A stretch of DNA of 64,000 nt from assembly GCA_026015185.1 (NCBI GenBank), contig JAOZGX010000070.1, positions 2,378 to 66,377 of the forward strand. The letters are read 5' to 3'. Below the pieces are notes generated by a model that saw only the letters and a program-made list of their open reading frames with translations, made no database searches and had not been told where the DNA came from. The stretch's first letter is position 1. Each line of letters opens with the position of its first letter. The position numbers and the translations under genes were made by a program. This DNA comes from Candidatus Bathyarchaeota archaeon (lineage in GTDB: Archaea > Thermoproteota > Bathyarchaeia > 40CM-2-53-6 > RBG-13-38-9). Shown here piece by piece: positions 53,716 through 55,938 of this stretch.

Positions 53716-55938
53716 ATGCCACGTTATAAAACAACTGCCGATATATTGAAAATCATTAAGAATAAGGACAACATCCGAAAGAAATAGAGTTAGGCTTCGC
53801 CTATATTTCCGGAATATATGGGCATAATTGCCCACGTTGACCATGGAAAAACTACTATGTCAGACTCTCTTCTGGCATCTTCTGGATTACTCTCACCATC
53901 AGTCGCAGGTAAAGCATTAGCTTTGGACTTTATGGAAGAGGAACAAAAAAGACAGATGACGATAAAAGCAGCAAACGTCAGTCTCTTGCATGAGATGAAA
54001 GAGCAATCTTATGTTATAAATCTAATAGACACGCCAGGCCATGTGGACTTCAGCGGAAGAGTCACACGTTCGTTAAGAGCAATAGATGGAGCTGTAGTTG
54101 TTGTTGATGCTGTCGAAGAAGTAATGGTCCAGACAGAGACCGTTACTAGGCAAGCTGTGGGAGAGCGTGTTAGACCTGTATTATATATAAATAAAATTGA
54201 CAGGCTGATCAAGGAGTTAAAATTAACCCCACAACAGATTGAGGAAAAAGTTGCAAGGATAATTAAAGATTTTAATGAATTAATTGAAACCTATGCTGAG
54301 CAAGAGTATAGAGAGAAATGGAAAGTGAACTTTTCAACGAATACCGTTGCTATGGGTTCAGCAAAAGATAGATGGGGTTTCAATTCAGTAATAGCTAAAG
54401 ATAAAAATGTAAAATTCTCAGATGTTGTAGATGCTTATAAGGAGAATAAAGTAGAAGAACTAAAAGAGAAGGTGCCTCTGAATGAGGCCATACTTAACAT
54501 GGTAGTTGAAGCCATGCCTCCGCCTCATGTTGCCCAGAAATATAGAATCTCTAAGATTTGGAGAGGGGATGCAGATAGTGAAATCGGTCAAGCTATGACC
54601 AACTGTGATGACAATGGTCCCGCTGTAATGTGTGTAGCGAACATAGTAGTAGATCCTCAGGCGGGAGTGGTTGCCACAGGTCGTTTATTCTCGGGCACTG
54701 TGCGAGAGGGTGATACAGTTCAATTGATTGGAGCAAAATCCCATTCAAGAATACAGCAAGTCTGCATCTTTATGGGACCTTATAGAGAAGTTATAGGAGA
54801 GATCACTGCTGGAAATATTCCTGCTTTATTAGGTCTAGATGCAGCTAGGGCCGGAGAGACCATCAGTTCAGTAAAGGATACATCACCTTTTGAAGCTGTA
54901 AAATATGTTACTGAGCCTGTTGTGACCTTAGCTGTAGAACCAAAGCACAGCAAAGATCTACCTAAATTAGTCGATACGCTTAAGAAGCTTTCAATTGAGG
55001 ATCCAAACCTTGTTACTACAATAAATGAAGAGACAGGCGAATACCTAATCGCTGGTATGGGAACATTGCATTTAGAGATTGCGACTACTTTAATTCAAAA
55101 AACAGGACTTCAAGTAATAACATCGAAACCTATAGTGATCTATAGAGAAAGCGTTAAAAAGCAAGCCGGACCAATCGAAGGAAAATCACCAAACAAGCAT
55201 AATAGGATTTTCATTAGCATTGAACCACTGAACGATGAGATCGTAGATATGATTAGAAAAGGAGATATCGGAGAATATATGGATCGTGCAGAAATGGCCA
55301 AAATCTTACGAGGAAAGGAATGGCCTGCTGATGAGGCAAAAGGTGTCTGGAGTGTTGATGAGGGATCCAATATGCTAATTGAAGTGACTAAAGGAGCACA
55401 ATTCCTCCAAGAAGTCAAGGATATGGTTACAGCAGGCTATAGATGGGGTTTGAAAGAAGGGCCTATAGCATACGAGCAAATGAGAGGAGTAAAAGTAAAG
55501 ATAGAAGATGTAAAGCTACATGAGGATGCAGTTCACAGAGGACCGGCACAGACTATGCCGATGACAAGGAGAGCGTTCTTCGCATCTTTCCTTTCTGCTG
55601 ATCCTTGCTTACTAGAACCCATACAAAGAATAACCGTTAAAATTGCCCCAGACCTATTAGGAGCAGTTACAAGTGTGATCACACAAAAGAGAGGTAAAAT
55701 TACATCAGTAGACCAAAAAGAAAATCTTGTGAATGTCTATGGAGATCTGCCTACAGCCGAAACATTCGATCTTTCGGAGGCACTCAGAGGCGCAACAGCG
55801 GGTCGTGCATTCTGGGGATTAGAATTCGCCCGATGGTCTCCTGTACCTGCATCTATGATAAATGAAGTCATCAGAGACATAAGAAAAAGAAAGGGTCTTC
55901 CTCCAGAACCACAAAAAGCAGCAGATTTTATGGACTGA
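53716..55938 (+). CDS. fusA: Translation elongation factor 2 (aEF-2); proposed join(53716..53779,53816..55938) after removal of a 36-nt BHB intron. The unspliced ORF would start only at 53818.
   Basis: G-domain [17 protein letters not shown], NKIDR; diphthamide loop HEDAVHRGPAQ. The upstream in-frame peptide [21 protein letters not shown] matches the EF-2 N-terminus and is separated from the G-domain by an insert with two TAG codons. Confidence 0.85.
53780..53815 (+). other. Candidate bulge-helix-bulge (BHB) intron inside the EF-2 coding region
   Basis: Central helix H is TCCG (53774..53777) paired with CGGA (53810..53813). Bulge 1 is AAA (53778..53780, cut aa|a). Bulge 2 is ATA (53814..53816, cut at|a). 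The intron-intron helix h' is GAAATA/TATTTC, a perfect 6 bp. The predicted cuts remove exactly 36 nt, giving ...[11 protein letters not shown]... Confidence 0.5.

Follow-up and report, generated by a model that had tools for sequence, protein, structure and literature searches.

The 64,000-nt stretch of Candidatus Bathyarchaeota DNA analyzed here (the window; contig JAOZGX010000070.1) carries, at 53818..55938, an open reading frame (ORF) for a 706-aa protein that is 100% identical to a database entry labelled EF-2 from a Candidatus Bathyarchaeota MAG. The ORF protein possesses the full set of EF-2 Pfam domains and the canonical diphthamide loop LHEDAVHRGPAQ. Upstream of it, an ATG at 53716 (window coordinates) opens a 21-residue peptide translated from 53716..53778. 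A first-pass annotation of this DNA had read this peptide as an archaeal EF-2-like N terminus, and both its coordinates and its translation proved correct. The same holds for the observation that the peptide is followed, in frame, by the codons AAG AAA TAG AGT TAG GCT TCG CCT ATA TTT CCG GAA TAT, ahead of the ATG GGC ATA ATT GCC CAC of the ORF. Deletion of 36 nt (53780..53815), as suggested there, indeed gives the canonical spacing and an N terminus reading ...IRNMGIIAH, which is that of canonical EF-2. The insertion site lies 64 bases into the EF-2 coding sequence, and the predicted spliced coding sequence of 64 + 2123 nt would encode 728 aa plus a stop. The features of the locus, from 5' to 3', are as follows.

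53704..53712 (+): Shine-Dalgarno-like motif GAGTGGGGT, read from the sequence, 4-12 nt before the exon 1 ATG
53716..53779 (+): exon 1, 21 codons plus an A that would be base 1 of an Asn codon
53774..53777 (+): central helix H, 5' strand, TCCG, exonic, within the Ile-Arg codons; pairs with 53810-13
53778..53780 (+): bulge 1, AAA, with the 5' cut predicted at 53779/53780
53780..53815 (+): predicted intron, 36 nt, phase 1 in the Asn codon (A/AT)
53781..53786 (+): intronic helix h', 5' arm, GAAATA; pairs with 53804-09
53785..53787 (+): in-frame TAG, the third codon past Arg21, with another TAG in the same frame at 53791-93
53791..53803 (+): inner hairpin TAGGC-TTC-GCCTA of the MFE fold, arms 53791-95 and 53799-803, 5 bp
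53804..53809 (+): intronic helix h', 3' arm, TATTTC
53810..53813 (+): central helix H, 3' strand, CGGA, intronic
53814..53816 (+): bulge 2, ATA, with the 3' cut predicted at 53815/53816
53816..55938 (+): exon 2, from the final two bases of the Asn codon onward to the stop

Fold and boundaries of the insert

Folding of 53760..53835 gave an MFE structure (-21.8 kcal/mol, z = -4.10) that matches the proposed one exactly, and none of 200 dinucleotide shuffles of this segment folds equally well. The "textbook" bulge-helix-bulge (BHB) core described in the first-pass annotation stands as regards the TCCG/CGGA helix, the two 3-nt bulges, and the 6-bp h', but the exonic outer helix is weak and the motif relaxed; the internal hairpin is likewise present in the MFE fold but has 5 bp (TAGGC/GCCTA) and not the 4 (AGGC/GCCT) originally drawn. 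On the exon side, the 3' bulge (53814-16) is closed by a single A-U pair (53773-53817), after which there is a mismatch. Since positions 53780 and 53816 are both A, removal of 53781..53816 would give an identical mRNA, and the boundary in the window is therefore set by the bulge rule, not by the sequence alone. This rule, a cut after the second bulge residue, is that of cbf5 and tRNA introns (PMC2738675). In relatives in which bulge 1 is AAT, such as L003, L004, and L031, Asn is obtained solely at the bulge-rule position. The arrangement given above is the sole BHB solution in this region of the window, and none of 300 shuffles of this locus's insert yielded an exact solution.

Conservation of the insert in other Bathyarchaeia

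The comparison with orthologs that the first-pass annotation had suggested places an insert of 27-44 nt at the identical EF-2 codon in 29 other species-level Bathyarchaeia genomes, with the upstream exon conserved as well; the resulting 30 loci are related by descent and are not 30 independent trials. Insert lengths at 23 of the 30 loci are not divisible by 3, and the inner hairpin varies in both sequence and length. By contrast, the recognition elements hardly vary: every one of the 30 loci has the pattern TCCG-N3...CGGR-N3, with bulges of 3 nt throughout and CGGA or CGGG as the 3' strand of H, and the third base of bulge 2 is always A, followed by T or C, such that an Asn codon (AAY) results. 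Cutting in silico after the second nucleotide of each bulge gives the conserved coding junction R-N-(M/I)-G in 30/30 loci. An unbiased BHB solver restored exactly [IV]RN[MI]GI[IT]AH in 30 of 32 loci, and for 29 of them it was the sole frame-restoring solution (the exception, L010, has one extra); among shuffled inserts, an exact solution appeared in 0.2%. A TAG occupies the equivalent position in 28/30 loci, and a stop occurs 2-5 codons past the intron start in every one of them.

Covariation points to the same structure. Across the relatives, 97.1% of cells are paired, compared to 88.0% in shuffles (0/500 reach the observed value), and sliding the register reduces pairing to 58% or less. Helix H is 100% paired in 26 distinct sequences, varying only from U-A to U-G, while h' is 94% paired, with double compensatory changes at three of its four first pairs (22 cells) and one internal mismatch in each of L012 and L018. 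RNAalifold recovered the same H, bulges, and h' de novo, with 4 covarying pairs. When eight other loci were folded, seven displayed the architecture seen in the window, and in the eighth (L014) the MFE structure was without H; several relatives reach only modest fold z-scores (-1.5 to -2.7). The exonic helix h consists of an A-U pair, a mismatch found in all 26 sequences, and another A-U pair, and is 60% paired overall. The loci thus combine a 4-bp helix bearing two 3-nt bulges on opposite strands with an h' of at least two Watson-Crick pairs, but fall short of the strict hBHBh' definition, which has at least two Watson-Crick pairs in exonic h (PMC7714728). Given this weak outer helix, the motif is best described as relaxed (HBh'-like), as in cbf5, a class ascribed in the literature to (alpha-beta)2 enzymes with an L1 loop. 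Taken together, these comparative data strongly support an intron as the predicted identity of the EF-2 insert.

The exon 1 peptide is also kept across the 30 loci, with variation mostly at third codon positions (summed entropies of 7.4, 5.7, and 21.2 at codon positions 1, 2, and 3). Judged from these sequences, exon 1 is evidently under coding constraint and evolves as coding sequence. Close relatives have GAGTGGGGT or GAGTGGTGT as the Shine-Dalgarno-like motif, and in most of the other loci with the intron the motif is GGAGG, GAGTTGAG, or TAGGAG, at an equal distance from an ATG, GTG, or TTG start. These features bear on a proposal that views exon 1 as a relic or upstream mini-ORF and EF-2 as a 706-aa protein made from the ATG at 53818, with the first 22 residues absent and no splicing. 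Public annotations of this protein (P0001-P0010, 706 aa) do all begin at that ATG, which comes immediately after the insert in the window as well as in nine other lineages, and a truncated product from 53818 is possible in the window's own lineage, for this species alone. In the remaining 20 of the 30 lineages, however, the codon after the insert is Ile (ATT or ATC), and the next Met, Met14, at which gene callers begin these proteins (693-695 aa), lies past the P-loop; the unspliced mRNA therefore cannot give a P-loop-containing, functional GTPase EF-2 there. A relic, moreover, would decay, whereas exon 1 keeps its frame, its amino acid sequence, and its third-position variation in 30 species, and Shine-Dalgarno-like motifs are found upstream of exon 1 and not of 53818. 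The conserved helix, the bulges, the covariation, and the exact restoration of Asn would all be left unexplained. We consider this account very unlikely, even with the spliced product absent from the protein and contig collections that we searched.

Those searches covered both proteins and nucleic acids. A protein database search for full-length forms returned for this clade only 706-aa or otherwise misstarted entries and no full-length protein of the PRYK type; the matches of 728-730 aa (P0013, P0014, P0022, P0094, and P0099) come from intronless "PRFK" lineages. A profile of the predicted spliced N termini scored 192 short candidates, none with a PRYK-type junction. An exact-pattern scan for a degenerate junction motif across 241 M JGI metagenome records detected no spliced DNA or cDNA of this clade and no intron-free allele of its PRYK-type EF-2; the two matches obtained both belong to an unrelated intronless EF-2 lineage. 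Thaumarchaeota-like fragments of the EF-2 N terminus (P0129, P0133, P0134, P0136-38, P0141, and P0143), which are short and have divergent tails, show inconsistent break positions and were treated as contig-end or assembly noise.

The source data being metagenome-assembled genomes, the insert might be suspected of being an assembly or sequencing artefact, as the first-pass annotation had itself allowed, or the locus of being a pseudogene backed by a second copy of EF-2; a few Bathyarchaeota do encode two EF-2 paralogs (PMC6143161). Nevertheless, the insert is present in independent assemblies from the window's lineage (JGI, two Logan runs, and three NCBI assemblies), with substitutions restricted to the inner loop (four in 97%-identical strains), and different projects and assemblers have recovered it with lineage-specific substitutions. 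Against a pseudogene, the two exons have stayed intact and conserved across about 30 species, the diphthamide loop is canonical, and the degenerate junction pattern found no insert-free PRYK-type EF-2 in the 241 M metagenome contigs. An origin as artefact or pseudogene consequently retains a minimal probability.

Candidate splicing pathway

We regard it as highly probable that a small archaeal BHB intron interrupts this EF-2 gene and needs to be removed from the pre-mRNA. In the pathway that we propose, the pre-mRNA would fold so that exonic TCCG and intronic CGGA form the 4-bp helix H with two 3-nt bulges on opposite strands, the 5' bulge being closed by h'. Cuts after the second bulge nucleotides would excise 53780..53815 and recreate AAT (Asn) together with the canonical EF-2 N terminus. 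By the precedent of the known pathway, both cuts would be made by the tRNA-splicing endonuclease EndA, expected to be an (alpha-beta)2 enzyme with an L1/CSL loop, tolerant of relaxed motifs in TACK archaea, with 2',3'-cyclic phosphate and 5'-OH termini as the result; the exons would then be joined by RtcB, which would probably also circularize the 36-nt intron. Ribosomes on unspliced RNA would be expected to halt three codons into the intron, where the in-frame TAG lies, giving only a 23-aa peptide. We envisage a single gain of the intron in a large Bathyarchaeia clade, followed by precise losses in some sublineages, an outline for which the neighbor-joining tree of relatives is indicative only.

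TACK and Asgard archaea conserve the (alpha-beta)2 EndA with an L1 loop (PMC5829648, PMC7714728), and from such literature we infer that EndA and RtcB are encoded in this genome; neither was among the 20 candidate-sized and neighboring ORFs scanned in the window. The related loci contain one tRNA, a tRNA-Gly of 102 nt with an unusual insertion (L001), which lends weak support to splicing being in use. A window-wide scan for BHB-shaped inserts that fuse ORFs recovered EF-2 and 90 other candidates, of which nine with an EF-2-like layout were rejected as having junk exon 1 peptides upstream of ORFs with natural N termini. This generic scan was too unspecific, and no second convincing BHB-split gene was found in the window.

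The insert could also be crossed by the ribosome, with the RNA unchanged, through frameshifting or hopping of the kind seen in phage T4 gene 60, in which a short, stop-containing, hairpin-forming gap likewise lies inside an essential ORF. The stop soon after the last exon 1 codon, followed by a stable hairpin, superficially resembles the gene 60 take-off site. However, gene 60 relies on matched take-off and landing codons, and neither codon match nor frame fits EF-2: a matched pair is absent (the in-frame codons before the ATG are CCG GAA TAT), and an Arg-tRNA landing on the sole downstream Arg codon (CGG, 53810-12) would proceed to AAT ATA TGG, out of frame with ATG GGC. Bypass also would not recreate the conserved Asn, and an insert that ranges from 27 to 44 nt while a 4-bp helix and 3-nt bulges stay fixed bears the signature of endonuclease recognition, not of hopping. 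We know of no description of ribosome hopping in archaea, and bypass strikes us as exceedingly improbable.

Finally, the insert might be removed from the RNA by some agent other than EndA and RtcB, such as a self-cleaving element or a different nuclease and ligase. The failure to find EndA or RtcB among the 20 window ORFs scanned and the weakness of the exonic outer helix would be compatible with this idea. Nonetheless, the geometry is exactly that of an EndA target, its canonical cut positions coinciding with the boundaries in every locus and at each of three independent sites (see below), and at 27-44 nt the inserts fall far below the size of group I or II introns. We rejected a group I or II intron for the window, since such introns have a ribozyme core of hundreds of nucleotides, the insert is 36 nt, and no Rfam family was found in the window (nor was any tRNA), and we rejected an intein on account of the in-frame stops and of insert lengths that are usually not multiples of 3. 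Processing by an agent other than EndA and RtcB is hence extremely unlikely in our estimation.

Other EF-2-family inserts and comparison with known systems

Beyond this site, another Bathyarchaeia lineage (L002) has a BHB-type insert at a second position in EF-2, and an EF-2 paralog of Odin- and Hermodarchaeota has one in four Asgard lineages. The architecture and cut rule described above apply to both, and in the Asgard paralog a synonymous exonic substitution has a covarying counterpart in the intron. The three sites in EF-2-family genes fall before the P-loop (R/N), inside the P-loop (AH/VD), and in switch I (RG/ITI). Separately, the EF-2 P-loops of L021, L032, and L033 harbor genuine inteins. 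It is conceivable, if doubtful, that BHB introns have repeatedly colonized the most conserved GTPase motifs of the EF-2 family in TACK and Asgard archaea, and that this may be nonneutral, with the tRNA-splicing machinery gating translocase output. An intron 64 nt into the coding sequence, with the TAG position kept in 28/30 loci, means that translocase production could be gated. If true, prokaryotes would have in it an equivalent of HAC1/XBP1-type regulated mRNA splicing that links the capacity for translation to that for tRNA maturation.

HAC1 and XBP1, processed by IRE1 and RtcB or Trl1, share with the EF-2 case the nonspliceosomal cutting of a small structured mRNA intron, the rejoining by a tRNA ligase, and a changed translation product. 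They differ in that IRE1 recognizes paired stem-loops, not a BHB, and in that they are stress regulated, of which the EF-2 case gives no sign. The HBh' tRNA introns of Thermoproteota (Marck & Grosjean 2003; PMC5829648) are similar in combining H, one well-closed bulge, and h' with a poorly closed second bulge, as well as in their size range and in the expected enzymes, namely, (alpha-beta)2 EndA with an L1 loop and RtcB. The EF-2 context, however, is coding mRNA, where splicing must preserve the frame and competes with translation. In Haloferax volcanii, HVO_1309 also presents an mRNA, not a tRNA or rRNA, as the substrate of the tRNA-splicing endonuclease (PMC7714728; PMC10485636), but its intron is in the 5' UTR of a euryarchaeon with an alpha'2-type EndA, and it has a canonical motif and experimental support.

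The EF-2 intron parallels the cbf5 intron as an analogue but does not belong to that group. The latter, known from Crenarchaeota (Aeropyrum, Sulfolobales, and Desulfurococcales; PMC2738675), is also a small BHB-type intron within an ORF, usually with a relaxed motif cut between the second and third bulge residues and located between codon letters 1 and 2 in a highly conserved motif (PMC2738675). Further shared traits are a patchy distribution, implying gain and precise loss, and TACK hosts with a hetero-oligomeric EndA. In contrast, cbf5 is a pseudouridine synthase gene with the intron at the catalytic Asp codon, while here the gene is EF-2, the hosts are Bathyarchaeia, and the intron is 64 nt into the coding sequence; cbf5 splicing has been demonstrated by cDNA and in vitro cleavage, whereas that of EF-2 is predicted.

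All of the public annotations of these EF-2 genes that we examined appear wrong at the N terminus, with lengths of 706, 693-695, 712, 723, or 753 aa as opposed to about 728 aa. EF-2 is a standard phylogenetic and genome completeness marker, so such N-terminal errors propagate, and gene callers should check TACK and Asgard genomes for BHB-split genes. The cbf5 pre-mRNA intron was reportedly treated by Watanabe in 2002 and Yoshinari in 2006, and also by Yokobori in 2009 (PMC2738675). To our knowledge, introns that interrupt an ORF and use the tRNA machinery have been documented in a single archaeal gene, cbf5, since 2002. The statement in the first-pass annotation that archaeal protein-coding BHB introns have been reported only from cbf5 thus holds for ORFs, but an mRNA intron has also been reported in the HVO_1309 5' UTR (PMC7714728). 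For EF-2, the L002 site, and the Asgard paralog, we found no report of an intron in the searchable literature. A 2023 review anticipated that more such introns "remain to be discovered" (PMC10485636).

EF-2 would be the second archaeal protein-coding sequence known to need such splicing. It would add to the targets of this machinery an essential, highly expressed core translation factor in a globally abundant uncultured lineage, along with two further sites, one of them in Asgard archaea, the closest relatives of eukaryotes. With about 30 species, there may be enough natural variation to define the rules by which an mRNA substrate is recognized.

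The EF-2 locus and its predicted RNA fold

The first-pass annotation had proposed that the window's gene for elongation factor 2 (EF-2) is split by a 36-nt stop-bearing insert (53780..53815) that folds as a bulge-helix-bulge (BHB) intron. The insert lies between exon 1 (53716..53779) and exon 2 (53816..55938). The exon 1 peptide, the in-frame stops, and the start of a 706-aa ORF are all borne out in the sequence, and in silico deletion of 53780..53815 restores the canonical EF-2 N terminus. The 706-aa protein possesses all of the EF-2 domains and is 100% identical over its full 706 aa to a Candidatus Bathyarchaeota MAG entry named EF-2. 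A second EF-2 paralog is known in some Bathyarchaeota (PMC6143161); the canonical diphthamide loop of the window protein, LHEDAVHRGPAQ, indicates that its gene is a bona fide EF-2 and not a paralog.

Features of the window locus (ORFs and stops from sequence reading, structural elements from the minimum-free-energy [MFE] fold)
53716 (+): ATG start of a 23-codon ORF
53785 and 53791 (+): in-frame TAG codons of the exon 1 frame
53818 (+): ATG start of the long ORF, 706 aa
53774-77 with 53810-13 (+): central 4-bp helix, H
53778-80 (+): bulge 1
53781-86 with 53804-09 (+): intronic stem, h'
53791-803 (+): inner hairpin

The MFE structure of 53760..53835 (-21.8 kcal/mol; z = -4.1; 0/200 shuffles equally stable) is identical to the BHB fold proposed in the first-pass annotation. 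Its description there as "textbook" does not hold, as the outer exon-exon helix is poor: it runs A-U, invariant mismatch, A-U, and then variable positions and is 60% paired, so that the motif fails the strict hBHBh' definition (PMC7714728) and belongs to the relaxed class. That class, which includes cbf5 and noncanonical tRNA introns, is tied to a hetero-oligomeric tRNA-splicing endonuclease (EndA) with an L1/CSL loop in the TACK and Asgard archaea (PMC2738675, PMC5829648).

In a gapless, anchored alignment, H and h' are paired at 97.1% versus 88.0 +/- 1.3% in column shuffles (0/500 match), compensatory double changes occupy 22 cells versus 7.4 expected, and sliding the 3' partners brings pairing to at most 58%. 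The pair types are A-U/G-C/G-U at h' position 2, C-G/U-A/U-G/A-U at position 3, and G-C/C-G/U-A/A-U at position 4. H is unchanging except for U-A to U-G, a near invariance that is expected because one of its strands constitutes Ile-Arg codons. From the sequences alone, RNAalifold arrived at this arrangement of H, 3-nt bulge, and h' and marked 4 pairs as covarying. We consider it very probable that the window insert is a BHB intron of the relaxed class, carried by the EF-2 pre-mRNA.

Distribution and coding constraint in Bathyarchaeia

A survey of one genome per species yielded 80 EF-2 loci, which were sorted by the sequence upstream of the P-loop motif. This comparison of orthologs for presence or absence of the insert, suggested in the first-pass annotation, uncovered an insert at the same codon (site 1, the window's Asn codon) in 29 Bathyarchaeia loci.

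Insert status of the surveyed EF-2 loci (L numbers, loci from other genomes)
L001, L003-L007, L009-L023 (including L021), L025, L030, L031, L034, L035, L037, L041, L045: Bathyarchaeia, same-codon insert of 27-44 nt
L008, L027-29, L036, L038-40, L043, L044, L046-48, L057, L078: Bathyarchaeia, no site 1 insert
L032, L033: Bathyarchaeia, no site 1 insert, intein only
L002: Bathyarchaeia, no site 1 insert, insert at a second site
Thermoprotei, Methanomethylicia, Culexarchaeia: EF-2 uninterrupted in all

A common layout, TCCG - 3 nt - stem ... stem - CGG(A/G) - 3 nt, runs through all of the interrupted loci. In 23 of the 30 loci (the window and its 29 relatives), the insert length is not divisible by three, which places exons 1 and 2 in different frames. 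The canonical cut rule, under which both bulges are cleaved between residues 2 and 3 (PMC2738675), generates ...(I/V)RN(M/I)GIIAH in every interrupted locus; where bulge 1 is AAT (L003, L004, and L031), a one-base boundary shift in either direction abolishes the Asn codon. A BHB solver blind to TCCG/CGGR, run on 32 loci, returned an exact junction-restoring solution in 30, this being the sole frame-restoring one in all of these except L010 (29/30), which has one extra. The two misses, L012 and L018, each have a single mismatch within h', and 0.2% of the trials with shuffled inserts gave an exact solution. On a rough neighbor-joining tree of EF-2, the intron occupies one large Bathyarchaeia clade, within which intronless members (L008 and the L027-29/L036 group) are nested and L002 also falls. 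This distribution is similar to the published gain-and-loss history of the cbf5 intron (PMC2738675).

The upstream exon is conserved in orthologs, a point on which the first-pass annotation had made its reading depend: most of its variation falls at third codon positions (column entropies sum to 7.4, 5.7, and 21.2 at positions 1, 2, and 3). Exon 1 begins with ATG, GTG, or TTG, and in most loci a Shine-Dalgarno-like GGAGG, GAGTTGAG, or GAGTGGGG lies 6-12 nt upstream. The L045 exon 1 (~2900-2966) is seemingly degenerate, with MILAYYLMKIVMNKDQIR replacing MPRYK... and the intron and junction intact, possibly through an assembly error or a change particular to that lineage. Read from exon 1, a stop occurs within 2-5 codons of the intron in every locus; in 28/30, it is a TAG at intron positions 6-8 (window 53785-53787) that is also part of the stem and may be retained either for its structural role or to halt ribosomes on RNA still carrying the intron. 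The postintron codon is ATT or ATC in 20/30 lineages, as a result of which gene callers begin at Met14, downstream of the P-loop (693-695-aa entries). A functional EF-2 is impossible in those 20 lineages unless the insert is removed.

The reading of the insert as an assembly artifact is countered by its recurrence in independent assemblies of the window's lineage. The same 36-nt insert is found in JGI 3300027901, Logan SRR5248172, and Logan SRR14699988 (97% protein identity) with identical synteny and four substitutions, all within the inner hairpin; three NCBI assemblies at 83% identity have a 39-nt version in which H, the two bulges, and the GAAAT/ATTTC stem are preserved. Searches recovered neither a junction-spanning protein of the window's clade in protein collections nor a spliced-junction contig in JGI metagenome records, and EndA and the ligase RtcB are absent among the window ORFs scanned; hence, we infer the enzymatic steps from the tRNA and cbf5 pathway.

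Elsewhere in the window, a LigT-like 2H phosphoesterase ("2'-5' RNA ligase" family; 45538-46113, +) lies directly upstream of a CCA-adding enzyme (46251-47702, +), both being RNA-end-processing proteins, ~6 kb from EF-2. Ribosomal protein S17e (56647-57126, +) has a ~60-aa Lys/Glu/Pro-rich C-terminal extension past the Pfam domain, and a 2.2-kb stretch (17517-19711) has no ORF of at least 110 aa on either strand, no tRNA, and no Rfam match. In the intron-bearing genome of L001, ARAGORN predicts a 102-nt tRNA-Gly(CCC) (L001:6370-6471) whose ~28-nt insertion outside the anticodon loop may be a noncanonical-position tRNA intron.

Other intervening elements in EF-2-family genes

L002 (JAVZFM010000049.1, a Bathyarchaeia hot-spring MAG) has a 42-nt stop-bearing insert (252-293) in phase 0, five codons downstream of site 1, between ...GIIAH and VDHGKTT. 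With H = GCCC/GGGC, an ATA bulge, an 11-bp stem, and an MFE fold of BHB architecture (z = -3.8), it is predicted to be another BHB-type insert in EF-2, independent of the first; applying the canonical cut rule yields an exactly restored P-loop. Gene calls in Odinarchaeota, Hermodarchaeota, and two other Asgard lineages divide an EF-2-family gene into ORFs of 81-84 and ~600 aa, and the gene's diverged domain IV loop (SDIVAERG) marks it as an EF-2 paralog. The solver found one 31-nt BHB solution per lineage (L083:3704-3734 in Odinarchaeota; equivalents in L085, L092 [Hermodarchaeota], L093/L094, and L095/L096), located inside the Ile codon of the switch I motif RG|ITIK, and all restore EEQRRG-I-TIK(S/A)ANISLLH. 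H covaries, taking the forms GAGG/CCTC, GGGG/CCCC, and GAGG/CCTT, so that an exonic synonymous change (CGA to CGG) is offset by one in the intron. Inteins occupy the EF-2 P-loop (GK|TT; AHVDHGK|C...VVHN|TT) in L021 (from about 1195), L032, and L033, with L021 combining a site 1 intron and an intein within ~15 codons. All of these elements, including the site 1 introns, lie in the most conserved GTPase motifs.

Annotation and standing of the proposed EF-2 intron

Public calls for intron-bearing Bathyarchaeia EF-2 have a wrong N terminus in all cases (database proteins P0001-P0120; P0015, P0017, and P0033): 706-aa calls begin at the ATG after the intron, and 712/723/753-aa calls carry spurious N-terminal extensions read through it. 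Several intron-bearing entries are binned as bacteria (Methylomirabilota, Saccharimonadales, Acidiferrales, and [Eubacterium] cellulosolvens).

The mechanism and intron class are already known. Full-text literature searches turned up two archaeal mRNA BHB introns, in cbf5 (Crenarchaeota) and the HVO_1309 5' UTR (Haloferax), of which the first-pass annotation had named only the former. The same searches, which covered papers available without subscription, so that an earlier description may exist elsewhere, yielded no mRNA introns of EF-2, Bathyarchaeia, or Asgard archaea, and interrupted genes go unmentioned in the principal comparative analysis of archaeal EF-2 (PMC6143161). EF-2 would be only the second ORF interrupted by an intron of this kind, with two further sites accompanying site 1, one of them in Asgard archaea. 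The insert is noteworthy as well for its presence in an essential translation factor, its conservation across a major uncultured lineage, and the systematic misannotation that accompanies it.
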